Source: Nitrospirota bacterium (GTDB lineage: Bacteria > Nitrospirota > UBA9217). Taken from it: 64,000 nucleotides of DNA. Of the stretch, positions 8,811 through 63,890 are shown one piece after another. Where the stretch lies: the NCBI GenBank assembly GCA_963740085.1, contig CAVUCU010000004.1:192001-256000 (forward strand), read 5' to 3'. Below the pieces are notes generated by a model. It was not told where the DNA came from. It did no database searches and saw only the letters and a program-made list of their open reading frames with translations. Numbering within the stretch: the first letter of the stretch is position 1; each line of letters starts with the position of its first letter. A program made the position numbers and the translations under genes.

Positions 8811-8820
8811 GGCGTATCCG

Positions 8821-12058: not shown

Positions 12059-12542
12059 ATGCACAAGGGGATTACCCTTATTGAACTTCTCGTGGTCATC
12101 GTGATCGTCGGTATTCTCGCCTCGGCGGCAATGCCGTTTTCGCGTATGGCCATTAAGCGGACAAGAGAGATCGAGCTCAGACAAAATATCAGGGCCCTGC
12201 GCACGGCGATCGACGAATTCAAGAAGGACTGTGATACGAGGAAGCTTTCGGCGGTCGAAGGCTACTGCAAGCCCGAACAATTCAACTACCCGGAGTCCCT
12301 TGAGCAGTTGACGGAACCGCTGAGGTTGGCAGGCGCCGCTGACACGACCAAGAAATACCTTCGCAGGATACCCCGGGACCCCATGACCCCGCTCGAAGCA
12401 CCGGACAAACCGAACAACTGGGGGCTGCGCTCATACGGCGACGAGCCGGACTCCCGTGATTGGGGCGGCGGAAACGTGTATGACATCTATTCAAAGAGCG
12501 ATAAGGTGTCCCTGGACGGGATCGACATACAATACATGGTGA
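12059..12542 (+). CDS. GspG-like pseudopilin (+1 frameshift near 12521; restored C-terminus LDG-STYNTW)
   Basis: G|ITLIELL prepilin site, YLRRIPRDP; the alternate frame matches the paralog's LDGTAYNTW end. Confidence 0.85.
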
Positions 12543-12558
12543 TTATGTGAGAAGAGAG

Positions 12559-15277: not shown

Positions 15278-15360
15278 CGGATTGGAAATTGGAAAATGAA
15301 GGCATATAATTTATGGCTTTTCAATTTAAAATTTCGCAATTTGCAATTTTCAATTTGAAA
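15264..15360. repeat. Heptamer-periodic inverted repeat
   Basis: AAATTGA/AAATTGG units facing CAATTTA/CAATTTG/CAATTTT units. Confidence 0.65.
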
Positions 15361-15378
15361 TGGAGCGTGAGCGAACTT

Positions 15379-17340: not shown

Positions 17341-19568
17341 ATGGATTATCTTGACAATTTGAACCCTCCTCAGCTCGAGGCGGTCCTGTATGGAGATGGG
17401 CCGCTGCTGATCCTTGCGGGCGCCGGGAGTGGAAAGACGCGGGTGATCACGTGCCGGATCGCACACCTGATCCGCGAGCGGGGCGTTGACGCCGGAAATA
17501 TCCTCGCGGTCACATTCACGAACAAGGCTGCCAACGAGATGAGGGGGCGGGTGGAGCGGATGCTTGATGTCCCGCTTAACCGGCTCTGGATCAGCACGTT
17601 CCATTCGGCCTGTGTCAGGATCCTGCGGCAGCACATTGACCGTCTGGGGTATAAGCGGTCGTTCGTGATCTACGACGAGACCGATCGTTCATCCTTGATC
17701 AGGGCCTGCATGGCCGATCTGCGGATCGACACCGAGCAGTACCAGCCGCGGGCGATCGGAGCCCGCATCAGCGCCCTCAAGAACAATCTGACCGATGCAG
17801 AGCAATTCGAAAAAGCGAGCGCTCATTTCGGGTTTGAGGAGGCCGTTTCACGGACGTACTCGCTGTATCAGGAGCAGCTCAGAGGATCAAACGGCCTTGA
17901 CTTCGACGACCTGCTCATGCTGAGCGTAAGGCTTTTTGAACAGCATCAGGATGTGCTCGGTTACTATCAGGGTCTGTTTCACCATATCCTGATCGATGAA
18001 TATCAGGATACGAACCATGCCCAGTACCGGCTTGTCCGGCTTTTAACCATGCGGCGAATAGAATCTCTGCGTCGTGGGGGACGACGACCAGAGCATTTAC
18101 AAGTTTCGCGGCGCCGATATCGCGAATATCCTGAATTTTGAAAAGGATTATCCTGCTGCAAAGGTCATCAAGCTCGAACAGAACTACCGCTCCACCGGAA
18201 ACATCCTTGGCGCGGCAGGCGCGGTGGTTGCGCGAAACCTCGGCAGAAAACCAAAGGAGCTCTGGACCCAAAAGCCCGGCGGCGACAAGATCCTCTGCTA
18301 CAAGGCCATCGACGAGAAGGACGAGGCCCGTTTCATCTGCCGGACCATCCAGCAGGAAGTGGACGAAGGCCGAAGCCTGCGCCAGATCGCGGTGCTCTAT
18401 CGCACGAACGCCCAGTCACGCGCTCTCGAAGACGCGCTGCGCAATTGGGGAACGCCGTACCGGATCTTCGGCGGCCTGCGGTTCTACGATCGCAAAGAGA
18501 TCAAGGACATCATCGCCTATTTGCGGGTGCTGCAGAATCCCGCGGACATTGTCAGCCTGCGAAGGATCATCAATGTCCCTGCGCGCGGCATCGGCGATAC
18601 CACGGTGGACAAACTGGAGCGCGCGGCAGCGGCAGCCGGGGTGTCATTGTATCAGGCCGCACGGGATGCGGATACCACCGATATCACTCCGGCGGCGAAG
18701 AAAAAGCTCCGGGCGTTCGTCGTCATGATGGACCGGATGCGAGATGATCTCGGGACGATGACGCTCACGGAGCTGGTCAGGAGGGTAATCCTCGAAGCCG
18801 GATATGGCGCGGCGCTCGATCAGGAGAAAACCATTGAGTCCCGCATCAGGCTTGAGAACCTGAACGAGCTCATGACTGCAACCGAGGACTTCCAGGAACA
18901 GAACCACGATGGATCGTTGCCGGCTTTTTTGGACCAGGTGGCGCTTATCACCGATCTGGAACAGCAGACCGCGGTTGATGGCAAGCGCGTAAACACCGAT
19001 ACAGTGACGCTCATGACCCTGCATAATGCCAAGGGTCTTGAGTTCGCACTGGTGTTCCTTGCCGGCATGGAAGAGGGGTTGTTCCCTCATTCCCGGTCAG
19101 CCGAGAGCGAGGAAGAGCTTGAAGAAGAACGCCGGCTCTGCTATGTCGGCATCACCCGGGCCAAGGAACGGCTGATCCTCACTCACGCCGTGGAGCGCAG
19201 GCTCTACGGTTATCCGCAGGCCAATCTCGTTTCGCGGTTTGTCCAGGAGATCCCGGAGCGAGGCAATGGACTTTGCGGGCATTGAACGATCAACACTCTC
19301 TGTATCGCGGGACCGCGCTCCATGGAACGCTGCTTTGTACGGCACTGCCCCGGTCGCACACGAGTTGATCCCCTCGTCTCCTCCGTCGCCGAAATCCGGT
19401 GTCGCCGGATCTTACTACAAAGGGGCGGTAGTGAAGCATGCCAAGTTCGGACTTGGCACGATACAGCGGTCCGAGGGAGAGGGAGACGACCTGAAGATAA
19501 GCGTGAGCTTTCCCGGGTATGGAGTAAAGACGCTGGCGGTGAAGTTCGCAAAATTGGAAGTAGTTTAA
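17341..19568 (+). CDS. pcrA: UvrD/PcrA DNA helicase (two +1 frameshifts near 18060 and 19256)
   Basis: AGAGSGKT, DEYQD, VGDDDQSIY, LEQNYRST, EERRLCYVGITRAK and C-terminal VKHAKFG.G Tudor-like domain across three frames. Confidence 0.9.
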
Positions 19569-45469: not shown

Positions 45470-45922
45470 ATGATCAGCCTTGATATCAACGGAAAGTCCT
45501 ACCAGGTCAAAGTCGATCCCGATGTGCCGCTGCTCTGGGTCATCCGGGAGCGGCTCCAACTCACGGGCACGAAGTTCGGGTGCGGCATCGGCATGTGCGG
45601 ATCGTGCACCGTGCACATCGACGGCAAGGCCCAACGGTCCTGCCAGATCCCGGTCGGAAGCGTGCAGGGCAAAAAGATCACGACCATCGAGGGACTGCCG
45701 GAGAACCATCCCGTGAAGAGGGCCTGGGTGCAGGAGCAGGTTCCGCAGTGCGGGTACTGCCAGCCGGGGCAGATCATGCAGGCCGCGGCCCTTCTCGCTG
45801 AAGACCCCCGGCCGACCGACGCCAGCATCAACGAACATATGAACGGCAATCTCTGCCGCTGCGGCACGTATCCGAAGATACGGAGCGCCATCCGGCTCGC
45901 GTCGAAGGGAGGCAAAAAATGA
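45470..45922 (+). CDS. (2Fe-2S) subunit, IorA/CoxS family
   Basis: GCG.G.CG.CTV, QCGYCQ, CRCGTY. Confidence 0.93.
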
Positions 45923-48205
45923 AGCTCGATCTTACGCGCAGACAGTTCCTGAAGATCGCAGGCACCGGCCTTGCTATTGCCGTGGTAGAGACATCGGATG
46001 GGTTCCGTCTTCTTTCAGCGGCACAGGCAGCGGAGGAGACCATCAGTTTCCATCCGAGTGCCTGGGTCAAGATCCTGCCGACCAACACCGTTATCGTGGT
46101 GGTGAACAAGTCTGAGATGGGGCAGGGCGTATACACGTCGCTGCCCATGCTCGTTGCCGACGAACTCGACGCGGACTGGAAGAACGTGACCCTGGAGGTC
46201 GCGCCCGCGGGCGATGCCTTCAAGGACCCGGTCTGGGGCAGCCAGTCCACAGGCGGAAGCTCGAGCATCCGCCACATGTCCGAGCCTCTCAGGAAAGCGG
46301 GAGCTGCGGCCCGGGAAATGCTTGTTGCTGCTGCTGCCCGCGGGTGGAACGTCCCGGTCAAGGAGTGCAGCGTTGAACTTGGCAGGGTCCGTCACGCGCG
46401 GAGCAGCCGGACGATTTCATACGGGAAACTGGTGAATGAGGCCGCAAAGCTCGACGTGCCGCAGAATCCCGTACTCAAGAAGGAAAGCCAGTTCCGGTAC
46501 ATCGGAAAGGATATTCCCCGGCTTGACATACACGACAAGGTGAACGGTCAGGCGCGGTTCGGCATAGATTCCTTCGTACCCGGCATGCTCTACGCGGCGA
46601 TCGCCCGGCCGAAGGCCTATGGTGCGGAACTCGCCTCATCCCAAAAAGATGCGGCTTTGGCCGTGCCCGGTGTACGCGCAGTCGTACCGATCCCGTCCGG
46701 CATGGCTGTACTGGCCGATACCATCGATGGGGCCTGGAAGGGGCGGGATGCACTCAAGCCGGACTGGCAGAACGGGAAATATCCGGGCCTCAGCACGGTG
46801 TCGCTGCAGAAGGATTACCTGGGCAGGCTTGACACAGCCGGCATCGTGGCGCGTAATGACGGCGACGCAAAGTCAGTAATAGAAGGCGCCGCCAGGAAGG
46901 TTGAGGCAGTGTACGAGCTTCCGTATCTTGCCCATGCCACCATGGAACCCATGAACTGCGCGGTCCATGTGCGGGCTGACGGCTGCGACATCTGGGCGCC
47001 GACACAGAACCAGTCAGGAGTGTTGGCCACTGCCGCAGGCGATCACCGGTCTGAAGCCTGAACAGATATTTGTTCATACCACGCTCCTTGGAGGCGGTTT
47101 CGGCAGGCGGTTCGAGCGGGACTTCATGGAGGAGGCGCTCCTCCTATCGAAGTCCGCGGGTAAGCCGGTCAAGGTTGTCTGGACGCGGGAAGAGGACACC
47201 CAGAATGATTTCTACCGTCCGATGAACGCGACCAGGATCACGGCAGCGCTCGACGCAGAGGGCCGGGCAGCAGCCTGGTCGCACACGATCGTCTGTCCAT
47301 CGATCTTTGCCCGCGTGTTTCCGCAGATGGTGAAGAACGGGATCGACAACGCCGCCGTGGAGGGCGTGGAGAATTTGGAGTATGAGGTCCCGAACGTGCA
47401 CGTTGAGTACGTGCGGTTTGACACGCCGGTGCCCGTGGGCTTCTGGCGTTCGGTGGGGAGTTCGCACAATGGTTTTACGGTGGAGAGCTTCGTTGACGAG
47501 CTCGCTGACGCGGCGAAGAAGGACCCCCTTGACTTCAGACTGGGCTTGCTTAAAAAGCACCCGCGGGCTGCGCGCGTGCTCCAGGTGGCGGCGGAAAAGG
47601 CCGGCTGGAGCAAACCGCCTGCAAAGGGACAGGCGCGCGGCATCGCCTACCACCTCTCCTTCGGTAGCTACGTAGCGGAAGTTGCTGAGGTGTCCGTTGA
47701 TCCAAAGAGCGGGGTGATCACGGTCCACAAAGTGACCTGCGCGGTGGACTGCGGCCCGGTCGTGAATCCCGCGATCATCAAGGCCCAGATGATGGGAGGC
47801 ATCACCATGGGTCTGTCCGCGGCTCTCAAGGAACAGATAGAGTTCGCAAACGGGGGCGTCAAGTCCGAGAACTTCGCGGATTATGAACTTCTCAGGATGA
47901 GCGAAGCGCCGGACGTGGACGTTCATATTGTCAAGAGTGGTGAAGCCCTGGGCGGCATCGGCGAGCCGGGTGTTCCGCCCCTTGCGCCGGCGGTCGCAAA
48001 CGCAGTGTTCAAGGCAACAGGCGCCCGGTTAAGACGGCTGCCCATGAATCCCGTGACCGTGCTCGCAGCGATGAAGAAGCGGGTAGAATTGCAAGGAACC
48101 GTTAAGTTCAGATACTATCCGCAGATTTCGCAGATTACACAGATTAAGTCAGAGCTGAATTGGTTTTTAAATCTGTCGTTCTCTATCTGCGAAATCTGCG
48201 GATGA
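45919..48205 (+). CDS. Tat-exported xanthine-dehydrogenase-family Mo subunit, IorB-like (+1 frameshift near 47036; true stop possibly TAG 48086)
   Basis: TRRQFLK, SEMGQG, HATMEP, GGGFGRR, GIGEPG. Confidence 0.88.
48117..48203. repeat. 9-mer-periodic hairpin with perfect 19-bp arms
   Basis: ATCCGCAGATTTCGCAGAT (48117-48135) / ATCTGCGAAATCTGCGGAT (48185-48203). Confidence 0.8.
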
Positions 48206-50887: not shown

Positions 50888-50965
50888 AGCACGAGCGATT
50901 TCGGACTTTTTACGAATGCATCAAGGATGTCAAACTACAGGAGAGACAACAATAGGAGGCCCGCG

Positions 50966-52033
50966 ATGAACGGCACAAGGAACATCATAGTACAGTATGG
51001 TAAGAAAAGCATATGGACCATTGCTGCATTCACCGCCGTGGCCTTATGTGCAACGGCCCTCTTTGCCGCTAACCCGGACGAAGAGTTGATGAACAGGGCC
51101 AAATCCATACTCGGCCCGCTCCCTGCGTCAATGCCCTCCCGGGACAATCTTATCACCCCCGAGAAGGTCAAGCTGGGAAACGTACTTTTTTGGGAACCGA
51201 GGATATCCGTTGACGGAACGATAAGCTGTGCCAAGTGCCACCCTATGGGTCTTTACGCCGTCGACGGCCTCCGAAAGTCGGTGGGGAATCACTGCAAGGA
51301 AAATCCCAGAAATGATCCGACCATCTTTAACGCAGCGTCTCAGATCTCGGAGCACTGGATCGGCAACAGAACGAGTGTAGAGGACCAGGCAAAACAGGCC
51401 CTCGTTGGACCACCATCGTATGGCATGCCGAGCTATGAGTCTGTTGAGAAGATCCTCAAGGGGATACCAGGGTATGTAGAGATGTTCAAACAGGCTTTTC
51501 CCGGAGAGAAAGACCCTGTAACCGCGGACAACTTCGCGAAGGCCGTCGGCGCCTTTGAACGGACGCTCGTGACACCGTCAGCCTTCGATGATTTCATGAA
51601 AGGCAATACCGCAGCGCTTACGAACCAGCAGAAACGGGGACTACAGATCTTTCTCGGTGCGGGGTGCGCTACATGCCATTTCAGCCCCTATCTGGGCGGT
51701 CAGATGAACCAGAAGTTCGGTCTTTTCGAGCCATATGAGAAATACACAAAAAGCAAGCCGGTAGATGAAGGAAGATTCGTGGTCACGAAAAGTCCTTCGG
51801 ACAAATATGTGTTCAAGGTCCCGGTACTCAGGAATGTAGCGGAAACCCCTCCGTATTTCCACGACGGGTCCGTGGATAAGTTGGAGGACGCGGTCGTGAT
51901 CATGGCCAAGATCCAGCTCGCGAAGGACCTCACCAAAGATGAGGCGGGAGATATCGTGGCCTTTCTCAAGTCACTGACCGGGACGATCCCCGAGGCAGCG
52001 CTTAAGGTGCCGATTCTGCCGCCGGTAGATTGA
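50966..52033 (+). CDS. Diheme cytochrome c peroxidase (CcpA/MauG family)
   Basis: CAKCH, CATCH, FKVP.LRNV..TPPYFHDG; signal peptide. Confidence 0.92.
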   Translation: MNGTRNIIVQYGKKSIWTIAAFTAVALCATALFAANPDEELMNRAKSILGPLPASMPSRDNLITPEKVKLGNVLFWEPRISVDGTISCAKCHPMGLYAVDGLRKSVGNHCKENPRNDPTIFNAASQISEHWIGNRTSVEDQAKQALVGPPSYGMPSYESVEKILKGIPGYVEMFKQAFPGEKDPVTADNFAKAVGAFERTLVTPSAFDDFMKGNTAALTNQQKRGLQIFLGAGCATCHFSPYLGGQMNQKFGLFEPYEKYTKSKPVDEGRFVVTKSPSDKYVFKVPVLRNVAETPPYFHDGSVDKLEDAVVIMAKIQLAKDLTKDEAGDIVAFLKSLTGTIPEAALKVPILPPVD

Positions 52034-52477: not shown

Positions 52478-55400
52478 ATGAGTGTAAGAAAACCATGCTC
52501 ATCACCATTTGGGATATTTCAGAGATCCGTATTGATCGTCGGTTTCCTGTCCGGTATTTTCCTCGGGACTAATGTCCAGGCATTTACCGTGAACGTGATC
52601 GACGACACGGGCAGCTCCGTTCCGAACTACGAATGGACCGTGCAGGAAGACAATACCTATGATGCCGTCGCAAATGTCGGGATCAAGGGCAATCCGAACA
52701 CGCTCTCGACATCGATCCATAAAAGCCATGCCCATGTGCTGGCTGTGGGTTCCACATCAACGGTCGACCTTCCCTCAACGAACCGCTATTATATTTCAGC
52801 GAAGGCCCCGGGATACACGCTGAATGGCGACATGGTAAAGGTGGGCCAGTCGAGCGTCACGATCCTTCTTCACAAAAACCCGATACCCATGGCACAGGTC
52901 AGCGTGCTTGTCTTCGAAGACAATGCGCCGATCAACGGCGCTCCCGATATACCGGGTGAGAGGTCTTTGCCGAATTTCAAGATCTATATCTATGACCAAG
53001 CCGGCCAGATGTCGACCGACGGCTTCGGAAACCCCATCGGGACCACGTATGACCTCAATACCGGAGATACCATAACGATAGGCGCAGGGTATGTGATTAC
53101 GACGACGGCCGGCGACGGCACGACCGGCAACGCACTGATCCCAAACCTCGCGCCGGGTAAATACGGGATCCGGGCCGTACCGAATGACGGAAGACCCTGG
53201 GTTCAGACGGCAACCATAGAAGGTACGCCCGGGATCGATACATGGGTCATGGCCGGGGAGCCGCCGTATAATACGGAAGCCGGCTTTTTCGGGGTCCATG
53301 CGTTTATCGGGTTCGTACTGCCGACCTCTTATTATCAAGGGATCGGGGACAGCACGACAAATCAGTTCCGGGCATTATTGCCCGGCGAAACAGCGGGAGC
53401 GATCACCGGTCAGGTCATGATCAATCATATGAACCGGCCGCCGCTTCAAGCAGGCCTTGTCCCGAGTATTCCCGTTCCGGAGGCCTATGTGGGGCTGACC
53501 GATGCGGGAAACGGCAACACGCAGGTCTACGCCGCAAAATGCAATCCCGATTCTACCTTTACCATTGCCAATGTACCCCCCGGCACGTACACGTTGACCA
53601 TGTGGGACTTTCCTCTTGATATGGTCATGGATTTCCGTACCGTCGTCATTCCGCCAACCGGCGGGACCGCGGATCTGGGGCAGATCCCGGTTGTTGCGTG
53701 GTTCGGCAGGTATGAGGGAAGCATCTTCAACGACGTCAACAAGAACGGCGTACGGGACCCTGGAGAAGCGGCGATCCCGAACCAGCTCGTCGATATTCGG
53801 TTCCGTGACGGTTCTATCTATTGGGCCAACACGACCGATTCCAGCGGAGAATTCTTGAATAGTGAGGTGTTCCCTTTCTTTAAATATATTATTGCCGAGA
53901 GTGATTATACGCGGTTCAAACCCACAGGCGCCACCGTGTATGTGGACAAGGGGGGGCCCATGTCTTCACCCTGGCCGAATCCGCTCTACCCGCTTCTGGA
54001 AACCCGCACCGATACCGGTCCCTTCCCTTTTCTTCTCGAGGGGATGATGCTGTACAACGGCAGTAACTCCAAGATCGACTGGGGCAGGGTGCCCTATGCA
54101 CCCGGCGAGAACGGCGGCATTGTCGGTGTTGCCTACCTCGCAACAACCCGTGCCCAGGCCGACCCGAGGCTTTCCGTTGCCGAACCATGGGAGCCGGGCA
54201 TTCCCGACGTAACGATAAATCTCTACAAAGTGACCGGCTATGACAGTAACGGGAAACCGATCACGCAGGGCCCGATCAATACCTACCAGACCGACTCCTG
54301 GGATAAGAATCTTCCGACGGGCTGTAAATCCGCAATGCAGGCAGCGGGACTTTCGCTCAATCCACTGGGAATCCCGATGGATACCTACATAGACTGCGCA
54401 GAGACCATTCCTTTCTGGAACCAGACCAAACCCGCCGTGTTCGACGGAGGTTATGCATTCTCCACCGACGCGCAGGGGAACCAGCTTCCTGCCGGCGAAT
54501 ATGTTGTTGAGATGATCATTCCTCCGGGCTATATCCTCGAGAAGGAAGAGGACGTGAACGCGATCGTGTCGGGAGACACGTACACCCCCTCGGTGCCGCA
54601 ACCGGCGCTTCTCCCGGCAGAGTGCGTCGGGGCAGACCATCTGGTACCCGCTTTTCACAGCTCAGACAGCGGCCCGAACGGCATTCCCCAGGGCAGCCCG
54701 ATCGATGTTTCAAGTCCGGTGTTTCCCTTTGTTGGGCAAATTAGGCCTCTTTGCGACAAAAAGCTTGTCCGGCTTGCAGACGGACAGAACGCGGCAGCGG
54801 ATTTTCATATCTGGACGCGTGTGCCGCCGGCGGGCAGGATCGTGGGGCTCGTGACCGATGACCTTACCCCGGAGTTCCGCAGGGGCAGTCCGAGGCTCAA
54901 CGACGTCATCGGCATACCATTCCTTCCTATATCTTTCCAGGACTATACCGGACACGAAGTGGCGCGTACGTATTCCGATGAGTGGGGTCAGTACAATGTC
55001 CTCGTCCCTTCAACCTATTCGGTCAATGTTCCGTTGCCGACGGGTGTAAGCCCGAATATAGTGCAGATCTTTGTGAACCATCGGGGGTTCGATCCGTCGC
55101 ATCCCGATCCGTACTTTAATCCCGGCTACCCGGTTGTCGAGGTCCATATGGACGTCTGGCCCGGGAAAACGACCTATGCGGATACGCCTCTCATCCCCAT
55201 CCGTCCGAATTTCAGCGCCCTTGATTGCGATCTTCCTGACAAGACGCCGATCGTGTTCGAAGTGAACGGGCCTGCAGGCGGGCCCTGGGTAGAAACAACA
55301 CCGGGAACAATCACGATCACTTCAGTGGGCAAGCAATTGTTAAGCGACACGAGCACCAGGGACTACGGCTTCGGAAGTTCCGCGGGAAATGTCTTTGCCA

Positions 55401-57616
55401 CTCCTGTCGGCAACCCTGTGGACAGCATGTCGACCCTGAAGCTTCAGATATCGAGCTGGGCGGATGGAGCGATCACGTTGACCGGAAAGCTCGAGGACGG
55501 CGTAACGCCTCTTCAGAACGGCGACTACCAGCTGACGATCAGACGTGACGACAGCCGCCGGATGAGCATAGCTGCTGCGACGCTCCATGTGGGTGTTCCG
55601 GCGAGCAAGGTCAAACATGTTGCGACCGGCACCGGCGCTATCCAGGCAGCTATCGACAGCGCCGCTGACGGCGACCTGATCCTGATCGCGCCCGGACTCT
55701 ATCCGGAGAACATCATCATGTACAAGAACGTGAAGCTCCAGGGATACGGCGCGGCCTCCACGGTCATCAATGCAGGCTACTTTACACCGGACAAGCAGAC
55801 TGCCTGGCTCGCGCTGCTCAACAGCATCACGAGCGCTCAGTCCAGCACATTTTACATCATCCCCGGAGAACAACCGGACTTCTTCCTTGAGCAGGGCTCG
55901 GGCATCCTGGTGCTCGCGAGAGAGGGAGACTTTACCCAGCTTGATCCGGCCAGAATAGACGGATTGCAGTTCACTGGCGCAAATCTCGGCGGAGGCATCT
56001 TTGTCAACGGGTTCGGCCATTATCTGCAGATCACGAACAATAAAATTACCGCCAACCAGGGGACCGTGGGCGGAGGCATCCGGATCGGGAGTCCGTCGCT
56101 CGTCAGCCCGGGTGATCAGGCGGGCTCGAGTTTCTACGAAAGCTCACATAACGACAACATCACCATCAGCAACAACCTGATCATAACCAACGGGTCCAAC
56201 GGCCAGACGATCGCGAGCGGAGGCGGCATTGGTCTGTTCACCGGCTCCGACAATTATGTGGTGAGCGACAGCTGGATCTGCGGCAATTACTCGGCCCTTG
56301 CCGGAGCTGCAATAGGGCAGCAGGGATTGAGCGACCATGGCCTGATCAGGAACAATTCGATCATCTTCAACCAGTCCTTTGACGAAGGCGGCGGGATCTT
56401 CCTGTCCGGAGAAACGCCGATCGCCGGCCTCGTATCGAACGCCACGGCAACGCGAGTGCTTCCTTCGCCCCTCCTGCTGTCCGCGGGAGCGGGAAACGCC
56501 GTGATCACCGGCAACCTGATCCAGGGGAACAACGGCGGCAATATGGGCGGCGGCATCACGCTCTTCAACTACAACGGTCTGGATGTTCTTTCCAATCCGA
56601 CGGATACGGCGGCATGGTACAAGACGGAGATCTACAACAACCTGATCGTCAACAACATTTCCGGCGCATACGGGGCCGGGATCGCGCTCTTCAATGCGCT
56701 CGACACGACCATCGTGAACAACACGATCTCAAATAACGACTCCACGGCCACAAGCGAGTTTGCCTTCGGTATCGTTCCCAACCCGGCGGGACTGGTGGAT
56801 CTCTTCCTGCCGCCCACAGCCATCACAGGGCCGATGCCCGCTGGCATAGGTATCCAGCCCATCAGCGCCGATCTGGTCTCGGCGATGTCTGCCACGGTCG
56901 CTTCCGGTTACGGCGCATTCGGCGGCACCATAACACCGGTTCTGGTCAATAATATCGTCACCAACAATTTCTCCTACTTCTGGAACGGGTACGACCCGCA
57001 AAACAGCCTGTCTGCCCTCACACTCTCCGGTGTATGGGACATGGGGGTATTCGGCGTACCAACGGCAAAGCTGAACCCCCGGTTCTCGCTGCTCACGAAT
57101 GCAACGGGATATGATCCTTCCAATATCTCCGGGGACCCGAAGTTCATGACCAGCTACAGGAACAACCTCAATGCCGCACAGGGAGGGGCGACCCTGGGCA
57201 ATTTCGTGAGCATCATCTATACTCCCATGACGCTTGTCGGCAACTATCACATCCAGCGAGTTTCACCGGCACTGGATTCCGGCGATTCGACCGCTCTCAG
57301 CACCTGGTATCCTTACCTGAGCCTTGATATCGATACGGAACCACGGCCCATGGGCTATACCGTTCCTGCGAAGCCGGACATGGGCGCTGATGAATTGAAC
57401 TCGAAAGGGGACGTCAATTGCGACGGCGGTGTGACCGCGCAGGACGCCCTGCTGGCGCTCCGGTACGTCGTGGATAATACGCAAACGCTGGCATGCCCGC
57501 AGAATGCCGACGCGGCTCCGCTGACGCCCACGGGCAAGCCGATCGGAAACGGAGTAACGAATCTGAGCGATGTGCTCGCTATTCTGATGCGAGCAACGAA
57601 TCTAGTGATATGGTAG
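52478..57616 (+). CDS. Large secreted protein: SdrD-B/Cna-like and IPT domains, right-handed beta-helix, C-terminal dockerin-like module
   Basis: Signal peptide; FNDVNKNGVRDPGE; IQAAID.A..GD.I.IAPG.Y.EN; repeated GGGI/NN.I; GDVNCDGGVTAQDALLALR...GNGVTNLSDVLAIL. Confidence 0.85.
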   Translation: MSVRKPCSSPFGIFQRSVLIVGFLSGIFLGTNVQAFTVNVIDDTGSSVPNYEWTVQEDNTYDAVANVGIKGNPNTLSTSIHKSHAHVLAVGSTSTVDLPSTNRYYISAKAPGYTLNGDMVKVGQSSVTILLHKNPIPMAQVSVLVFEDNAPINGAPDIPGERSLPNFKIYIYDQAGQMSTDGFGNPIGTTYDLNTGDTITIGAGYVITTTAGDGTTGNALIPNLAPGKYGIRAVPNDGRPWVQTATIEGTPGIDTWVMAGEPPYNTEAGFFGVHAFIGFVLPTSYYQGIGDSTTNQFRALLPGETAGAITGQVMINHMNRPPLQAGLVPSIPVPEAYVGLTDAGNGNTQVYAAKCNPDSTFTIANVPPGTYTLTMWDFPLDMVMDFRTVVIPPTGGTADLGQIPVVAWFGRYEGSIFNDVNKNGVRDPGEAAIPNQLVDIRFRDGSIYWANTTDSSGEFLNSEVFPFFKYIIAESDYTRFKPTGATVYVDKGGPMSSPWPNPLYPLLETRTDTGPFPFLLEGMMLYNGSNSKIDWGRVPYAPGENGGIVGVAYLATTRAQADPRLSVAEPWEPGIPDVTINLYKVTGYDSNGKPITQGPINTYQTDSWDKNLPTGCKSAMQAAGLSLNPLGIPMDTYIDCAETIPFWNQTKPAVFDGGYAFSTDAQGNQLPAGEYVVEMIIPPGYILEKEEDVNAIVSGDTYTPSVPQPALLPAECVGADHLVPAFHSSDSGPNGIPQGSPIDVSSPVFPFVGQIRPLCDKKLVRLADGQNAAADFHIWTRVPPAGRIVGLVTDDLTPEFRRGSPRLNDVIGIPFLPISFQDYTGHEVARTYSDEWGQYNVLVPSTYSVNVPLPTGVSPNIVQIFVNHRGFDPSHPDPYFNPGYPVVEVHMDVWPGKTTYADTPLIPIRPNFSALDCDLPDKTPIVFEVNGPAGGPWVETTPGTITITSVGKQLLSDTSTRDYGFGSSAGNVFATPVGNPVDSMSTLKLQISSWADGAITLTGKLEDGVTPLQNGDYQLTIRRDDSRRMSIAAATLHVGVPASKVKHVATGTGAIQAAIDSAADGDLILIAPGLYPENIIMYKNVKLQGYGAASTVINAGYFTPDKQTAWLALLNSITSAQSSTFYIIPGEQPDFFLEQGSGILVLAREGDFTQLDPARIDGLQFTGANLGGGIFVNGFGHYLQITNNKITANQGTVGGGIRIGSPSLVSPGDQAGSSFYESSHNDNITISNNLIITNGSNGQTIASGGGIGLFTGSDNYVVSDSWICGNYSALAGAAIGQQGLSDHGLIRNNSIIFNQSFDEGGGIFLSGETPIAGLVSNATATRVLPSPLLLSAGAGNAVITGNLIQGNNGGNMGGGITLFNYNGLDVLSNPTDTAAWYKTEIYNNLIVNNISGAYGAGIALFNALDTTIVNNTISNNDSTATSEFAFGIVPNPAGLVDLFLPPTAITGPMPAGIGIQPISADLVSAMSATVASGYGAFGGTITPVLVNNIVTNNFSYFWNGYDPQNSLSALTLSGVWDMGVFGVPTAKLNPRFSLLTNATGYDPSNISGDPKFMTSYRNNLNAAQGGATLGNFVSIIYTPMTLVGNYHIQRVSPALDSGDSTALSTWYPYLSLDIDTEPRPMGYTVPAKPDMGADELNSKGDVNCDGGVTAQDALLALRYVVDNTQTLACPQNADAAPLTPTGKPIGNGVTNLSDVLAILMRATNLVIW

Positions 57617-57681: not shown

Positions 57682-58980
57682 ATGCGAATAAAATCTCGTA
57701 TCATTTACACGGGTCTTGTCCTTCTGCTTCTGGGTGTGGCCATCCCCGCGTGGGCGGCCTCGGTACAGGTGCAGTACCCCTGCGATATCGATAATCAGCC
57801 GACCGGGAATTTCCCCGGTCCCGAGGATGTCGACTGGAATGGCGATGGCATTATCGACATGCTGGTGTCCAACGGAACGGCCACAGCCTCATGCCCTGCG
57901 ACACTCAAATACATGAGACTTGGCGGGACTGACGGATATTGCCGGATGGCCGACGGGCTCGATCTGTATTCTTTCGGATTCATTGATCTGACAGGCATGC
58001 CGGAAGACACCGTTCTGGATCAGGGATTAAATCACGCCAATATTCCCGCGCCGACGATCGTCATGAACGAAGGTGACGAGGTTTATCTCAACCTGTCGAA
58101 CCTGGGGATGCTCCTTCGTCCTGATCTGTTCGATCCGCACACGGTCCACTTTCACGGGTTCCCGAATGCCGCGACGGTCTTCGACGGCGAACCCATGGCG
58201 AGCTTCGGCGTCAGGCCGACTTCCACCATTACCTATTACTACCATCCCGTGGATCCGGGCACCTACATGTACCATTGTCATCAGGAAGCCACGGAACACA
58301 TGGAGATGGGCATGCTCGGGAACCTTGTGGTACGCCCCGCGCAGAACGGGACTTCCTATATCTACAGCGGCCAGACCTATACGAAGTTTGCTTACAACGA
58401 CAGAGACGGCCGCACGGGATATGATGTAGAGGCGATGATCAAGTACTCTGACATGGACCCCATATTTCATCAGCGGGACGAAATCTTCCAGCCGCCGCGC
58501 TTTGCCGAATTCGAGGCGCGCTATTTTTTACTGAACGGCCGGGGATATCCCGATACCGTCAATACCGGGGAGATCACGAACGGCACGAATAATTACGCTG
58601 CCCAGAAGATGAATTCCAAGATCACGATCAACCGGACGGCTCCTAGTGGCCAGCGGACCATACTCATCAGACTCATCAATCTTTCGGTCCAGCATTTCAC
58701 GAACGTAGAGGCCCCCGGGTTGGGTATTAAAATTATCGCCAAATGCGCGAGGCTTTTGCGCGGTCCGAACCCGACGGACGGCACAGGGCCGGGAGCGGGC
58801 AACGATACAAGCTACTATGTCACTTCCGCGCTTGTGGGACCGGGAGAGTCGATCGATCTCCTCATCGATACGAACGGTGTGGCCGCCGGGACGTATTATC
58901 TCTTTTCGCGAAATCTGGACCAATTGAACAACGATCTGATGGACCGCGGCGGAGTAATGACGGAAATCACCATTATCTGA
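57682..58980 (+). CDS. Two-domain multicopper-oxidase-like protein A (copper ligands only in domain 1)
   Basis: Signal peptide; HTVHFHG; YMYHCHQEATEHMEMGM; LNGRGYPDT. Confidence 0.9.
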   Translation: MRIKSRIIYTGLVLLLLGVAIPAWAASVQVQYPCDIDNQPTGNFPGPEDVDWNGDGIIDMLVSNGTATASCPATLKYMRLGGTDGYCRMADGLDLYSFGFIDLTGMPEDTVLDQGLNHANIPAPTIVMNEGDEVYLNLSNLGMLLRPDLFDPHTVHFHGFPNAATVFDGEPMASFGVRPTSTITYYYHPVDPGTYMYHCHQEATEHMEMGMLGNLVVRPAQNGTSYIYSGQTYTKFAYNDRDGRTGYDVEAMIKYSDMDPIFHQRDEIFQPPRFAEFEARYFLLNGRGYPDTVNTGEITNGTNNYAAQKMNSKITINRTAPSGQRTILIRLINLSVQHFTNVEAPGLGIKIIAKCARLLRGPNPTDGTGPGAGNDTSYYVTSALVGPGESIDLLIDTNGVAAGTYYLFSRNLDQLNNDLMDRGGVMTEITII

Positions 58981-59015
58981 TCCAAGATGCGAGTATCGTC
59001 TGAACGGAGGCAATC

Positions 59016-60495
59016 ATGATGCTGTTTAAGGATATTTTAAGAATTCTGCTGCTGATCATAGGTCTTGCGGTCATCCCGCTGTCACAGGCGGACGCCAAGG
59101 TCCACGGACTGAGCGGTACGTCGCCGACCCCTGTATTCAACTTCATTGCCTCGGCGGCACATATCACCACGCCGGATGGCGGCAGCCTCCTGTTCTGGGG
59201 GTTCGGCGACGCTTCGGCGGGCATACCCCAGTATCCGGGCCCGACTTTGATCGTGAATGAAGGGGATACGGTCACCATCAACCTGACCAATAACCTGGCC
59301 GAGCCTGTATCAATGACTTTCCCCGGACTCGATGTCACCTCGCACGAGGCGCCTCTCTTTCCCATGGGCGACCGGACGATGCTCAATTCCGTGGTCTCCG
59401 AGGCTGCGCCGAACGGCGGTACCCGGACCTACACATTCACGGCAAGCAGACCCGGCACGTTTTACTATCAGAGCGGCTCCAATCAGCCGATCCAACTGCG
59501 CATGGGACTCTTCGGCGCCATCGTTGTGCGTCCGGCCCAAAATGGAACGGCAATGACCATCAACGGCAATGATTACCGGTTCCTTCGGGGACTCTATACA
59601 TTGGCCACGGGCACAACCGGAACCGGCGTCACCAAGACGTTCACCCAGTTCGCCTACGATGACGGCGATGGTTCGACAGGATATGACCGGGAATACCTTT
59701 TTCTTTTCAGCGATATGGACCCGGCGTTTCACAGCTGGATGGAATTCGGCGGCGCTTACGATATCAGCAAGTGGAAGGCCAATTACTGGTTCATCAACGG
59801 CCGCTGCGCACCGGATACCATGGATATGCCGAATGTCGCGAATCTGCCGAACCAGCCTTATAATGCTCAGCCTTTCATGCACCCCGGCGAAGTGATCCTG
59901 ATCAGGTATGTCGCCATGGGCAGGGACTTGCACCCCCTTCACACGCACGCCAATCATGTGCGGGTCGTTGCTACTGACGGGAATCTGCTGAGCACAGCGG
60001 CTACGGGCACGACCGGCGCCGATCTGTCCTGGCTGACATTTACCCTTACCCAGTTCCCGGGAAAAACGCTTTGACGGCACTTTCACCTGGACCGGCAGTG
60101 AACTCAACTGGGACATATACGGCCACAAACCCGGCGACCCCCTGGAACCTTACGAGTACCTTGCCGACCACGGCAAACAGTTTACGCCGAACCTGCCGCC
60201 CATCAATGACACGAACGGACAGCCCGTATCCCAGGGTCTGGCGCCTGCGCAGGCATTTCCTGTGCTTCAAGCGTCAATCGAGACCATCATAGGGGGGCTC
60301 TTCTGGAGCGGCAGCCCCTATCTGGGGTCTTCGGCGCCGGTCGTACCCGGGGAGGGCGGATTCAACCCCTTTAACGGCTACTTCTATATGTGGCACAGCC
60401 ACGCTGAGCGGGAAATAACGAACAACGATATTTTCCCGGGAGGGATGCTTACCATGCTGGGCATCCTGCCATGGTCGGCACCCATATCCGAATAA
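59016..60495 (+). CDS. Two-domain multicopper-oxidase-like protein B (His ligands only in domain 2; +1 frameshift near 60069)
   Basis: Signal peptide; PGPTLIVNEGD; HPLHTHANH; +1 frame open from FDGTFTWTG through YMWHSHAERE to stop 60495. Confidence 0.85.
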
Positions 60496-60507
60496 CGGAG
60501 GTCGTGA

Positions 60508-61749
60508 ATGATGAATAAGACAAACCTGAAGATAATCTGTATGACCTTCCTGCTTATCGCCGGCGTTGCTGTCATGGCGGATGTGTCGTCGGCAGCGACC
60601 TACACTCTCCGGGCCGATAGGGCGAATCTCACCATGCCCGATGGTACGGTAGTCCCTGTCTGGGGATTTGCCGATGACGTCGCAGGAGCCGGTACGGGTA
60701 CGGTAATGGTCCCGGGCCCCCAGTTGATCGTTCCCGCATTGGACACGACGCTGACGATCAATCTGACGAACAACCTGCCGGTGCCCATTTCTGTGGACAT
60801 CCCGGGTCAACGGTATCCGAACGGCGCGACCCCGACCTATGTAGATGACGGGAAAGGCAATCGGGTAATGTCCTTCACGAATCACATCGCCGCGAATGGA
60901 GGAACAGCGTCACTCACCTTCGCAAACCTCAGACCCGGCGTATTTCTGTATGAGAGCGGCACCAATCCTGCCATGGAGATACCCATGGGACTTTATGGGT
61001 CGCTGATAGTACGCCCGCCTACCGCGGGTCAGGCATACGAACTCAATCCTCCATACAATGTGGACTCAACCTTTGCCAACGAGGCGGTTATTCTGCTGAG
61101 CGAGATAGACCCTCGATTCAACGACTATGTCGATGTCAATGGCACGACAGTCGACGCCGCGAACAAGATCAACTATTCGATAAGCTATGCCCCGATGTAT
61201 TTTCTCATCAACGGGAAGGCTTATCCGCAGACCTCGGACATCTCGGTTCCTCATGGGCAGCGGACGCTCCTGCGCCTTTTGAACGCCAGCGGGCGCAACG
61301 TCATGCCCACGTTCCAGGGAGAGGTTCCCACGGTCATTGCCGAGGACGGCTATTTGCTTAATTACCCCAGGCGCGAATTTGCACCCTCCCTGACCGCGGG
61401 CAAGACACTGGACATTATTTCGGCGCCGAGCGCAACAGGGTATCATGCTTTCTATGATCGTCGTCTGGGCATGTCAAACGCAGGTGTTTATCCCGGCGGC
61501 ATGATCACCTTTCTCGGGGACTTGAACTGCAGCCCGTTAAAAGGAGACGTGAACGGAGACGGCAGAATATCACCTATCGACGCTTTGACTGTCCTCCGTG
61601 CATTTGTCGGGGGAACGACCAATACACTTCCTGCCGGCGCCGATGTCTCTCTCGATCCCGCTTCAGGACTTCCCTGCGGGAATGGGACGATCGATCTGGT
61701 CGACGTCCTTATGCTGCTTCAAAAGGCTACAGGGTTCAACCCTTATTGA
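60508..61749 (+). CDS. Two-domain cupredoxin protein C without copper ligands, with C-terminal dockerin-like module
   Basis: VPGPQLIV, LYESGT...MGLYG.LIVRP, LINGKAYP; GDVNGDGRISPIDALTVLR...GNGTIDLVDVLMLL. Confidence 0.85.
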   Translation: MMNKTNLKIICMTFLLIAGVAVMADVSSAATYTLRADRANLTMPDGTVVPVWGFADDVAGAGTGTVMVPGPQLIVPALDTTLTINLTNNLPVPISVDIPGQRYPNGATPTYVDDGKGNRVMSFTNHIAANGGTASLTFANLRPGVFLYESGTNPAMEIPMGLYGSLIVRPPTAGQAYELNPPYNVDSTFANEAVILLSEIDPRFNDYVDVNGTTVDAANKINYSISYAPMYFLINGKAYPQTSDISVPHGQRTLLRLLNASGRNVMPTFQGEVPTVIAEDGYLLNYPRREFAPSLTAGKTLDIISAPSATGYHAFYDRRLGMSNAGVYPGGMITFLGDLNCSPLKGDVNGDGRISPIDALTVLRAFVGGTTNTLPAGADVSLDPASGLPCGNGTIDLVDVLMLLQKATGFNPY

Positions 61750-61777: not shown

Positions 61778-62269
61778 ATGAGGGATCAAAGGGAGCAAAC
61801 AGGGTCTTTGAAAGAGGCCGTGAAAAACCGACCGGTTTTAATTGCCGCGGGACTCATGATGATTGTGGGTCTGATCACCCAGAGCGGCTGCGTGAGAGTA
61901 AAACCCGTTGATCAGGATACAACTCATCAGCTGACTCCTGCGGAATCTGCGGGCATCGAGATCGTGAGGATCCATCCCTCAGTGGGTGGGCAGATGCTTG
62001 ATCTTCGATATCGCCTGATCGATGTGGAAAAGGCGAAACGCGCCATGAACCGGCAGGCAAAGATCTATCTAATTGATCAGGCAAGCGGTACGAAACTTCC
62101 GATCCCAAACATGGCAAAGGTCGGCAAACTGCTGCAGCGACCGGAACAGACCGGGGGAGACAAGATATTCTGGGTCTTTTTCAGCAATCCCGGGGGCATG
62201 GTCAAGACGGGAGCAAAGGTAACTCTGGTGATCGATGAGATCCGCATCAAGGATATCGTTGTTCAGTAA
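61778..62269 (+). CDS. Putative lipoprotein in the copper-oxidase operon (start uncertain)
   Basis: Hydrophobic stretch + QSGC; MLDLRYRLID.EKA...KVG.L.Q. Confidence 0.7.
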   Translation: MRDQREQTGSLKEAVKNRPVLIAAGLMMIVGLITQSGCVRVKPVDQDTTHQLTPAESAGIEIVRIHPSVGGQMLDLRYRLIDVEKAKRAMNRQAKIYLIDQASGTKLPIPNMAKVGKLLQRPEQTGGDKIFWVFFSNPGGMVKTGAKVTLVIDEIRIKDIVVQ

Positions 62270-63890
62270 TCGCAGTACCTTGAGCCGCAGATTGATCGTC
62301 GCGGTCGCATGCATGGCGGTCTTCTTCTCACCTGGGGCCAATGCATGGTGCGGGGAAATTGCTCAAGAGCTTCTTAAAGAAATAGAAAGCAATGGTCCAA
62401 TCCATGAGTATGCGGTCATTATCAAATTGAGGGGCGTCGTCGGCTACCAGTCGCTCAAGGCATCTGTCGAACAGATGGCTCGCCACGAGCGGGTAAAAAA
62501 AGTGGTCCAGGAAATCAAGGCTGCGACCGACAGATCGCAGCAGAATTTGCGGTCGCATCTCGTCAACCAGGAAACGCTTGGCAAGGTAAGGAACGTAAAG
62601 CACTTCTGGATAGTCAACGGAATAGCCGTAACAGCAACGCCGGAGGCCATAAAAGAACTGGCGTCGCGGGCTGATGTTGAGGAAATTGTGCCGGACAGGA
62701 TCATCACCCTCGGCGCACCGGCCGTTGCTTCCAGCGCGGCTCCTGCTGGATGGAACCTGGACAGGATCGGGGTCCATCCTCTCTGGAACGCGGGATACAC
62801 AGGGCAGGGCGTAGTGGTCGCCACCATGGATACGGGAGTTGATATCAATCAACCTGAACTTGCATCGAAATGGCGTGGAGGAGTGAACAGCTGGTTCGAT
62901 CCCAGCGGAGAACACGGGACCCCCGCTGATGTGAGCGGCCACGGGACCCAGACCATGGGCATCATATTGGCGGGGAATACAGTGGACCATCTCATCGGTG
63001 TTGCTCCTGATGCTAAATGGATTGCGGCCAAGATATTTAATGATGCAGGTGTATCTTTTTCCAGCATCACGCATCAGGCATTTCAGTGGGTCCTCGACCC
63101 TGACGGAGACCCGAATACGAACGACGCTCCCGATATTGTTAACTGCTCCTGGGACCTGAGCAGCAGCGGGACTGTCACCGTTGTGAACCTGGAGTTCCAG
63201 CCTGACGTTCAGGCACTTCAGGCAGCAGGCATTGCGGTCGTCTTTTCAGCGGGCAATGCCGGGCCGCTTTCAAATACTTCGGTCAGTCCGGCGAACTATC
63301 CGGAATCGTTCTCGGTTGGAATGACGGACAGTACGGACATGATAGACCCGCGGAGCAGCAGAGGGCCGTCGGCATTCGACGGAACATCTCTCTATCCGAC
63401 GGTGGTTGCCCCCGGGGCCGGTGTTACGACGACTGACCTCTGGTTCGGCTCAGCGGACCTGAGCACCGTAACGGTGAACGGGTCATCATTTTCCGCTCCC
63501 CACGTTGCGGGCGCAATGGCGCTGCTGCTGTCAAGCAACCCGACCCTGACTGCCGGGCAGATGGAGGACGCGATAAAGCCGACTGCCTGGGACCTCGGAA
63601 CTACGGGGCCTGACAATGATTATGGGTACGGATTTCTGGATGTAGAACGGGCGGCAAGACAATTGAATATTCTGCAGCCGGGCTCAGTCGGTGATGTGGA
63701 CGGCAACGGAGCGCTGGATCTGAATGACGTTTTAATTGATTTAAGGGCGGCGGTCGGGTTTCCGACGAGCACTGTTGAAATGGACAGGATCAAAGCCAGA
63801 GGTGATGTATATCCTCCCGGCGCGCCGGATAATATGATCACGCCGGCGGACGCGCTGACGCTTCTCCGCATGTACGTGGGGGCACACTAA
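62235..63890 (+). CDS. S8 subtilase with propeptide and C-terminal dockerin-like module (start uncertain)
   Basis: MDTG, HGTQTMG, AGN, GSSFSAPHVAG; GDVDGNGALDLNDVLIDLR...GDVYP...DNMITPADALTLLR. Confidence 0.9.
   Translation: MRSASRISLFSNRSTLSRRLIVAVACMAVFFSPGANAWCGEIAQELLKEIESNGPIHEYAVIIKLRGVVGYQSLKASVEQMARHERVKKVVQEIKAATDRSQQNLRSHLVNQETLGKVRNVKHFWIVNGIAVTATPEAIKELASRADVEEIVPDRIITLGAPAVASSAAPAGWNLDRIGVHPLWNAGYTGQGVVVATMDTGVDINQPELASKWRGGVNSWFDPSGEHGTPADVSGHGTQTMGIILAGNTVDHLIGVAPDAKWIAAKIFNDAGVSFSSITHQAFQWVLDPDGDPNTNDAPDIVNCSWDLSSSGTVTVVNLEFQPDVQALQAAGIAVVFSAGNAGPLSNTSVSPANYPESFSVGMTDSTDMIDPRSSRGPSAFDGTSLYPTVVAPGAGVTTTDLWFGSADLSTVTVNGSSFSAPHVAGAMALLLSSNPTLTAGQMEDAIKPTAWDLGTTGPDNDYGYGFLDVERAARQLNILQPGSVGDVDGNGALDLNDVLIDLRAAVGFPTSTVEMDRIKARGDVYPPGAPDNMITPADALTLLRMYVGAH

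Follow-up and report, generated by a model that had tools for sequence, protein, structure and literature searches.

The 64,000-nucleotide (nt) stretch of contig CAVUCU010000004.1 from a Nitrospirota bacterium, referred to from here on as the window, carries three neighbouring genes on the plus strand—A, B and C (Table 1)—that probably encode three different subunits of a single multicopper oxidase (MCO). Domains of the Pfam families Cu-oxidase, Cu-oxidase_2 and Cu-oxidase_3 are distributed across the three products, B being 35% and C 30% identical to A. Their leaders, judged by eye only, share a hydrophobic N-terminus and sites of the AWA, ADA and SSA type, lack a twin arginine and look to be of the Sec type. 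The best solved relatives of all three proteins found with HMMER were the type C two-domain MCOs 3g5w, 2zwn and 3gdc, followed by copper nitrite reductases, the expectation values (E) being 4e-13 for A against 3g5w, 9.2e-10 for B against 2zwn and 9.7e-6 for C against 2zwn, the last alignment spanning both domains. The Pfam and HMMER results thus agree with a first-pass annotation of the window, made from the letters alone, which had recognized three adjacent paralogs with two cupredoxin domains and a signal peptide each; its description of C as lacking copper ligands and bearing a dockerin is likewise borne out, the motif scan of C having come back empty and the Dockerin_1 match (E 7.2e-7) reaching 29.8 bits against the Pfam cut-off of 22.9.

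The AlphaFold model of A alone (predicted local distance difference test, pLDDT, 77.8; predicted template modelling score, pTM, 0.80) superposes on whole chains of the solved two-domain MCOs, with template modelling scores, taken by target, of 0.72 for 3g5w, 0.71 for 2zwn, 0.74 for 7rab and 0.72 for 3gdc, and domain 2 of A, weak in sequence searches, is therefore taken to be a cupredoxin domain in the usual position. With the copper nitrite reductase (NirK) model TIGR02376, the cut-off of which is 296.3 bits, A, B and C scored 36.3, 29.1 and 32.7 bits, respectively. The six cupredoxin domains are not joined in one polypeptide of the ceruloplasmin type; they come from three genes, each with a signal peptide of its own. 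It should be mentioned that residues 28–90 of A (57763–57950), preceding the first cupredoxin domain, form a conserved extension modelled with low confidence, which across the relatives exhibits a Q-C-P motif, a calcium-loop-like D-x-N/D-G-D motif and a second conserved Cys; the A of the window has Tyr in both Cys columns, with Cys two and ten residues away.

Concerning the copper ligands, assigned by analogy with the copper-binding residues of the solved enzymes, A possesses the motifs HTVHFH (residues 153–158) and HCHQEATEHMEMGM (residues 198–211), both in domain 1, aligned by HMMER to the HTIHWH and HCH...H...M stretches of 3g5w. The type-1 set consists of H153, C199, H206 and M211, and the cluster histidines are H156, H158, H198 and H200. 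The protein B, read through the break in its frame, contains HPLHTH (306–311) and HSH (460–462) in domain 2, aligned to HAMHSH and FHDH of 2zwn as well as to the equivalent stretches of 3g5w; here the cluster histidines are H309, H311, H460 and H462, with H306 also present. By both motif scan and alignment, paired His motifs are absent from domain 2 of A, domain 1 of B and both domains of C. The type-1 ligands—His, Cys, His and an axial Met—are found in A only, so that the type C feature of two cupredoxin domains with a type-1 site in the first is seen in A, B and C being without such a site, and in none of the three does one chain hold both His sets, as every type C chain does. The eight His in four HxH motifs expected of a trinuclear cluster (for the motif list, see PMC7036934) are brought together only by A and B jointly, any single chain having at most half of them. 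In the first-pass annotation, HPLHTH and WHSH without a type-1 Cys had been assigned to domain 2 of B, and both motifs were located there, the Cys column being occupied by Ser; of its ligands for A, HTVHFH and HCH/H/M stand, the spacing having to be corrected from HCHx4Hx4M to HCHx5Hx4M.

Relatives were collected by a search of 5.8 billion proteins with A, in which 8000 candidates were scored and 5327 of them matched at an E of 1e-5 or below, and by a scan of one genome per species, in which at least 593 stretches were matched. The family is large, with at least 562 of these species-level genome stretches encoding a relative of A, and thousands of metagenome proteins. The best 80 stretches were examined, and the resulting ligand alignment contains, with the window included, 81 rows for A, 79 for B and 74 for C. 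No variation is seen in any of the eight ligand columns of A (81 of 81 rows). For B, 77 of the 79 rows have H306, H309 and H311 (two gaps), 73 have H460 (five gaps and one Phe) and 73 have H462 (six gaps); two or more of the rows with gaps come from genes truncated at the end of a contig, and the five histidines are invariant in all 41 complete sequences. The column of the type-1 Cys holds Ser in 78 of the 79 B rows and in all 74 C rows, the columns of H200, H206 and M211 of A hold Gly, Gln and Leu in nearly all rows of B and C, and the HxxHxH columns of A are Val, Val and Pro in both. Counted by motif, exactly two HxH occur in 75 of 81 A rows, both in domain 1, and in 66 of 79 B rows (fewer in five, including the cut genes), with none at all in 71 of 74 C rows. 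The 120 best database homologues of A all keep HCH...H...M and, except for a 241-residue fragment, HxxHxH (119/120), and two further HxH in the second half were found in none of these 120. Since the identical split recurs in every related locus examined, the ligand pattern lies far beyond chance; conservation of the split across homologous loci had been named in the first-pass annotation as a check on its proposal. The label of ordinary multicopper oxidase that automatic annotation gives to A and B would therefore, the family being large and its ligands divided, be misleading on a wide scale.

The second domain of B also contains, at residues 346–439 (60051–60332), a conserved insertion of about 95 residues (mean identity 0.57), having no counterpart in A, C or the solved two-domain MCOs. 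Within it, three residues do not vary (W358, D366 and Y368) and four hardly do (H370, E380, D384 and H385); the insertion possibly makes contact with a substrate or a partner.

The three genes follow each other in the order A-B-C on one strand in 73 of the 80 loci, the contigs of the remaining seven ending inside or just after A or B, and C is missing from none of the 73 loci that extend far enough. The median intergenic gaps are 23 and 19 nt. The loci cover the phyla Nitrospirota, Pseudomonadota (Gallionella, Sideroxyarcus, Rhodoferax ferrireducens, Thiobacillus, Sulfuricella, Methylocaldum, Thioploca and Steroidobacteraceae), Thermodesulfobacteriota (Geobacter, Oryzomonas japonica, Desulfopila and Desulfobulbaceae), Acidobacteriota, Verrucomicrobiota, Planctomycetota, Myxococcota, Bacteroidota and Hydrogenedentes. 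A distant branch was reached with a database protein read as a B-C fusion (P0126) as bait, which fetched metagenome loci, 19 of them at least 6 kb long: B is directly preceded by A in all 17 loci with room for it, this A being 28–41% identical to the A of the window and carrying HxxHxH and HCH, and the C of this branch is free of motifs. In a sample independent of the feature—301 genomes drawn evenly across the phylum of the window—A was detected at E 1e-40 or better in 16 genomes and B, at the same threshold, in ten, all of them among the 16 and with B located 1–2 kb from A on the same strand. Five further A genomes have a weaker B-like gene directly downstream of A, and in the sixteenth A occupies bases 30–866 of its contig, right at the end; B without A was encountered in none of the 301 genomes. 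The co-occurrence of the genes, by which the first-pass annotation had wished its proposal to be judged, is thus seen both in the related loci and in 15 of the 16 A-bearing genomes of the phylum.

The evolutionary signal of the set is that of a unit. In the genus of the window, the cassette is present in one of eight other genomes, and the gene trees of A, B and C do not track taxonomy, from which it appears that the cassette moves horizontally as a whole. The identity matrices of the three proteins correlate with each other (r 0.68–0.78). Averaged over pairs of loci, identity amounts to 0.57 (A), 0.54 (B) and 0.41 (C); by domain the mean is 0.65 and 0.58 in A, 0.59 and 0.55–0.62 in B, and 0.48 and 0.46 in C, and since all six domains are constrained, B and C are not decaying copies. 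The use of these domain values as a pointer to the active interface was abandoned, the differences (0.65 against 0.58 in A, 0.59 against 0.55–0.62 in B) being small. A quick maximum-likelihood tree of 75 sequences with supports from the Shimodaira–Hasegawa-like approximate likelihood ratio test (SH-aLRT), taken from a quick search while the careful one was unfinished, places A, B and C each in one group (supports 100, 94 and 99) with parallel inner branching, and makes B and C sister groups (support 100). The triplication is, on account of these single groups and their parallel branching, regarded as old. The tree suggests a stepwise order in which A split from a common ancestor of B and C, and B then from C. 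A complete two-domain enzyme would have been duplicated, A losing the domain-2 histidines and the ancestor of B and C the domain-1 sites. Such an A, combined in a ring with two copies of the ancestral B/C chain, would already have formed only one complete interface, and after a second duplication C could have shed whatever sites remained.

The frame of B is interrupted in the window, as the first-pass annotation had noticed, and the cause could be narrowed down to one extra base in a run of five A, AAAAA (Table 1). The first frame spans 59016–60074 and the continuation lies in the +1 frame to 60495; skipping one base at the run yields a B of 492 amino acid residues (aa) that aligns end to end with intact relatives. 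The nearest relative, locus L016, has one base fewer at this site and an intact B of 489 aa, to which both halves of the B of the window are 80–82% identical, with no further stops. If the break were a real mutation, the cassette would be dead in this organism and its genes relics, whatever the family does elsewhere. That is considered rather unlikely, since only a single base in a homopolymer is involved and other, hardly dispensable genes of the window are split as well: a glmS-like gene for a GATase plus SIS protein into overlapping frames (15313–16404 and 16319–17209), a uvrD-like helicase gene into N- and C-terminal parts (17341–18141 and 18074–19285) and a gene for a molybdopterin-binding subunit (45919–47061 and 46967–48205). 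The A gene of L016 has an N-terminal frame break of its own (at about 6890–7110), residues 1–43 and 38–431 matching in different frames. Based on the homopolymer, the intact B of L016, the other split genes of the window and the broken A of L016, the interruption is read as an assembly indel. Among the glmS-like, uvrD-like and molybdopterin-subunit junctions, only that of uvrD has a homopolymer of five or more. A programmed frameshift was rejected, the shift being a +1 shift at an A run where L016 is unbroken and no other locus is broken.

Table 1 Features of the window and of the 10 kb that follow its end in the same genome (L098, with positions counted there)
Feature	Position	Strand	Description
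Large secreted protein	52478..57616	+	1712 aa; Ig-like/adhesin-like domains, right-handed beta-helix, dockerin-like C-terminal tail
Subunit A	57682..58980	+	432 aa; two cupredoxin domains, ligands in domain 1 only
Subunit B	59016..60495	+	two cupredoxin domains, His set in domain 2; frame broken by one extra base
A5 run with single-base insertion splitting B	60062..60066	+	located by frame analysis and comparison with L016
Subunit C	60508..61749	+	413 aa; two cupredoxin domains without copper ligands, then a dockerin
Dockerin of C	about 61540-61656	+	residues 345-383; Pfam Dockerin_1
Small conserved protein	61778..62269	+	163 aa; N-terminal helix/lipoprotein-like anchor, Ig-like beta-sandwich
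S8 protease	62235..63890	+	subtilisin-like, I9 propeptide, dockerin-like tail; Peptidase_S8 E 2.8e-47 (Pfam)
Big_1 protein	L098 3-809		
Cohesin protein	L098 837-2195		452 aa
SCO1/SenC gene, first	L098 2407-3111		
Open reading frame with weak cytochrome c match	L098 3039-4256		overlaps the open reading frame with weak periplasmic-binding-domain match
Open reading frame with weak periplasmic-binding-domain match	L098 4087-4815		
SCO1/SenC gene, second	L098 4829-5407		
Periplasmic-binding-domain protein	L098 5386-7086		566 aa
Protein with FKBP_N domain	L098 8666-9301		

The first-pass annotation was right in treating A, B and C as belonging together, and missed the larger cassette around them, which comprises a large secreted protein (homologues in 73 of the 80 loci), a small conserved protein (59/80) and an S8 protease (44/80); further upstream of the large protein, no gene is common to the 80 loci. 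The large protein matches the Pfam families SdrD_B, fn3_3, CarboxypepD_reg and Beta_helix; its match to the NosD family covers 45 residues (E 3e-5) and lies far below the cut-off, and its look-alikes belong to unnamed clusters only. The small protein, considered as a candidate copper chaperone, matches neither a Pfam nor an NCBIfam model, lacks any His, Cys or Met that is conserved, and has no Foldseek match at E 0.001 or better; its model (pLDDT 84.5) gave a best VIA-align Z of 6.9 with the N-domain of ScsB, and 5.2–5.8 with chaperones of the PCuAC type, values in the chance range for immunoglobulin (Ig)-like folds. In the loci L084 and L094, where the large protein is unfused, its last part is a run of Gly residues followed by W-A-C-L-I-S and a hydrophobic segment, which looks like a C-terminal sorting signal, different in kind from the dockerin of the window. 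A gene for a sigma-54 activator upstream of the cassette in L068 (1–1005) and L017 (3–1034) hints that some lineages may control the cassette through sigma-54. Directly upstream of the large protein in the window, at 50927–52033, a di-haem cytochrome c peroxidase (CCP_MauG, E 2.2e-41) is encoded, which is not common to the related loci.

Some of these genes are found fused with each other. The frame of A extends more than 250 residues upstream in 13 of the 80 loci, and in 12 of these 13 there is no signal-peptide-like stretch at the junction, i.e. the large protein is fused in frame to the mature A. In L047 and in L150, the latter from another family of the phylum, the large protein is fused behind C: the order in L150 is A, B, a protein of 2418 residues, the small protein and the protease, the 2418-residue protein containing C at residues 36–355 and the large protein at 567–2179 (E 5e-144). 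Since these fusions link them, the large protein, A and C would sit in one assembly. Six database proteins of 866–1295 residues read as B followed by C, an item of lesser weight because it rests on those protein sequences and not on their DNA; full-length B-C fusions account for two clusters among 757 matches at E 1e-30 or better (1.84 billion representatives), and in a trial MAFFT alignment to a B-C fusion, the homologues of B and of C were both placed on the same half.

With regard to the anchoring, C, the large protein and the protease of the window end in dockerin-like modules that are homologous to one another: the dockerin of C is 45% identical to the tail of the large protein over 67 residues (E 1e-13), the latter staying below the Pfam dockerin cut-off with 20.1 bits, and the dockerin repeats of C match the protease tail at an E of about 7e-6. 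In Gallionella, C and the protease share a tail of another type, Big_9/cadherin-like; the tail of C in Rhodoferax consists of DUF11 repeats, and the protease of Oryzomonas has a weak dockerin match. The tail type of C is thus lineage-specific and changes together with that of the neighbouring protease. The genome of the window contains two cohesin matches above the cut-off, one in a protein encoded about 1 kb downstream of the window end (Table 1) and the other at the C-terminus of a secretin (window 9529–11943; 26.2 bits against a cut-off of 24.1). It would be unusual for a secretin to bind dockerin proteins at the outer membrane through a cohesin of its own, and this one may serve the cassette as both exit and anchor. 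The secretin, which has tetratricopeptide (TPR) repeats, lies in a pilus/type II secretion-like cluster at 6837–13008, together with PilN, PilO and two pseudopilins. The faster evolution of C, its lineage-specific tails paired with that of the protease, and the cohesin genes of the genome are in keeping with a ligand-free subunit that has a structural and targeting role, as proposed for C in the first-pass annotation. The Sec-type leaders and the SCO1-type proteins encoded downstream fit a loading with copper and an assembly outside the cytoplasm.

Based on the above results, it appears probable that A, B and C form an obligate heterotrimeric two-domain MCO with one type-1 and one trinuclear copper centre, and the six-domain ring proposed in the first-pass annotation is thus supported by co-occurrence and by the conserved split. 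Gene content, ligand positions with their conservation, co-occurrence and fusions are direct observations; the ring with its one cluster, the location at the cell surface and the nature of the substrate are inferences. After Sec export, the three proteins would assemble into a ring of six domains, as in the homotrimeric two-domain MCOs, in which the interface between domain 1 of A and domain 2 of B would be the only one of three to hold the eight histidines and to bind the trinuclear copper cluster. The single type-1 copper in A would adjoin this cluster, being linked to it via the His-Cys-His triad; C would close the ring and its tail would fix the enzyme to the cell surface, the dockerin of the window being meant for the cohesins encoded nearby. 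Electrons would be taken up at the type-1 site of A and O2 reduced to water at the A/B cluster, the copper probably being supplied outside the cytoplasm by the downstream SCO1-type proteins, and the enzyme would work with the large adhesin-like beta-helix protein, to which it is covalently fused in some lineages. Any one of the three genes, expressed alone, should then yield an inactive protein.

That A and B alone make up the catalytic oligomer, either a dimer or a ring such as A-B-B, with C as a separate surface adaptor outside the ring, is a possibility to which little probability is given. It would account for the ligands being confined to A and B, for the faster evolution of C (mean identity 0.41) with its variable anchoring tails, and for the C-like gene that lies apart from A-B in two genomes, G045 and G053. 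It sits poorly with the fact that C has kept both cupredoxin domains, aligned over both with 2zwn, that it is found in each of the 73 loci long enough and that its tree mirrors those of A and B. Copper nitrite reductases are trimers. Known two-domain MCOs are trimeric as well (PMC13151041), and a ring needs a third two-domain chain. Least likely, and improbable indeed, is that each of the three proteins makes a homotrimer of its own, with sites of a new kind, and that they act in sequence rather than as one enzyme—A with a type-1 site and a partial, nitrite-reductase-like type-2 or binuclear site, and B with a His-lined site of another function—for, although copper nitrite reductases share the fold with fewer interface histidines and are also matched by A (9cck, E 1.4e-10), and although the proteins of a probably related cluster in Sideroxydans lithotrophicus ES-1 are unequally abundant (PMC12016527), the pattern HxxHxH plus HCH of A is that of an MCO and not of a nitrite reductase (36 bits against a cut-off of 296), the exact complement of its missing half is invariant in the next gene, B, and A and B were never found apart in the samples examined.

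Several points weigh against the obligate heterotrimer. The meeting of the eight histidines is a prediction from homology to the homotrimeric two-domain MCOs, and many of the hosts are anaerobes or microaerophiles, which is odd for an O2-reducing enzyme. A relic His is retained in the column of H198 of A in 40 of the 79 B rows and 22 of the 74 C rows. In G045 and G053, both from one family, the C-like gene is fused to the large protein and is located about 15 kb away from A-B or on another contig, and none of the 51 metagenome loci fetched with P0126 has a fused B-C frame (32 short loci with 0 of 53 matching open reading frames fused, and 19 long loci likewise without a fusion). The B of the window is broken in this assembly, and the enzyme would be missing from the organism in the rather unlikely case that the break is real. 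Finally, the abundance percentiles of the three ES-1 proteins in late magnetite culture—79.3, 74.8 and 29.5 (PMC12016527)—do not suggest a 1:1:1 ratio, although percentiles are no measure of stoichiometry and the cluster is matched by description only.

As for the substrate, Fe(II), dissolved or bound in minerals, is the most likely single candidate for the heterotrimer, followed by Mn(II), and to name it the main substrate is tentative, the chances being somewhat below even. Fe(II) is favoured because of the invariant ExxE- and Met-rich loop at the type-1 site (HCHxEAxEHMxMGM, with E202, E205, M207, M209 and M211 invariant in all 81 A rows), the iron-cycling hosts and the behaviour of the ES-1 cluster on magnetite. 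ExxE has been cited as an iron-binding motif in OmpB (PMC5566968); the host range is rich in iron oxidisers and reducers, such as Gallionella, Sideroxyarcus, Rhodoferax ferrireducens, Geobacter and Oryzomonas, and the proteins of the Slit_1812-1818 cluster of ES-1 reached a higher abundance with magnetite than with Fe(II)-citrate (PMC12016527). Possible alternatives are Mn(II), polymers of phenolics, and the removal of oxygen with electrons from the neighbouring cytochrome. The widest reading, namely a mineral-facing Fe(II)/Mn(II) oxidase tethered to a large adhesin-like protein and belonging to a widespread, unrecognized class of heterotrimeric MCOs that evolved by stepwise loss of sites, is doubtful as a whole; were it true, bacteria of many phyla would pass electrons from solid minerals to oxygen outside the cell.

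Away from the cassette, genes for a Polbeta nucleotidyltransferase and a HEPN protein adjoin each other at 1918–2959 of the window, the usual layout of HEPN/MNT toxin-antitoxin pairs.

Among the systems already described is the ES-1 cluster, which had been overlooked in the first-pass annotation. He et al. (2017, PMC5566968) recorded it as a tandem of three MCO genes to which they gave no role, and according to PMC5566968 and PMC12016527, Slit_1812-1818 contains three tandem genes for extracellular cupredoxin/MCO proteins, two of them with MCO motifs; the third protein, without these motifs, is much larger and has adhesin-like and polysaccharide-lyase-like domains, and the cluster also includes small hypothetical proteins, SCO1/SenC and a cytochrome. 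By description only, this layout matches that of L150 (A, B, C-large protein, small protein, protease) combined with the genes for SCO1 and cytochrome c that follow the window, and the ES-1 cluster is probably related to the A-B-C cassette; the ES-1 names were absent among the 120 best homologues of a Gallionellaceae A protein. In PMC12016527, two of the ES-1 proteins are treated as canonical MCOs, and the words trimer, heterotrimer and AlphaFold do not occur in its main text. No paper on a heteromeric two-domain MCO was found by title and abstract, in a search with thin coverage of subscription journals. The cluster itself is thus already in print, and the reading of its divided ligands as one enzyme was, as far as found, not in the literature searched; it offers a testable model for clusters flagged as unexplained by researchers of iron oxidation, such as the Sideroxydans copper proteins that are more abundant on magnetite.

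The genes that continue the cassette beyond the window end (Table 1) resemble the MofB, MofC and copper-chaperone genes that stand beside other extracellular MCOs (PMC5566968). Clusters of the MofA/OmpB type have similar accessory genes, represented here by the MofC-like pair of open reading frames with weak cytochrome c and periplasmic-binding-domain matches, SCO1 and FKBP_N, but MofA and OmpB are single large MCO polypeptides, and He et al. call the three tandem MCOs non-homologous to them (PMC5566968). In the two-domain MCO Nmar_1354 of Nitrosopumilus maritimus (9cck), a 'heterotrimer' of the alpha-alpha-alpha-prime kind has been described, in which the chains come from one gene and differ by the proteolytic loss of an extra cupredoxin domain, each interface holding a full cluster. 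The two-, three- and six-domain MCO classes are named in PMC7036934. The Mnx complex (MnxG with MnxE and MnxF) is also an MCO working only as a multi-protein complex, but MnxG is a complete multi-domain MCO with small unrelated partners and not part of a ring of paralogs with divided ligands.

Closest in both sequence and fold are the type C two-domain MCOs, i.e. the blue copper oxidase of Nitrosomonas europaea (3g5w), the metagenomic laccase mgLAC (2zwn), 3gdc and 7rab. Two-domain MCOs are divided into types A, B and C, and the known members of type C are homotrimers with both His halves in each chain and three trinuclear clusters. The cluster of two-domain MCOs sits at the interface of two units (PMC11761707). 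Type C and the cassette agree in having a first domain with the type-1 site, HxxHxH and HCHx5H, and a second domain with two HxH; the cassette differs in that no chain has both halves, so that a ring could hold at most one cluster and three different genes would be needed to build it. The six-domain MCOs, such as ceruloplasmin, form a ring of six domains with a single trinuclear cluster between the first and the last. The likeness to them would be one of architecture: ceruloplasmin is one polypeptide with three type-1 sites, whereas three polypeptides and one type-1 site are seen here. The established MCO architectures are monomers of either three or six domains and homotrimers of two-domain chains. 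A ring of paralogs with its eight cluster histidines placed on two chains would, if true, be the fourth, and it would represent a living example of the long-postulated stage between the homotrimeric two-domain enzymes and the six-domain enzymes with their single cluster.

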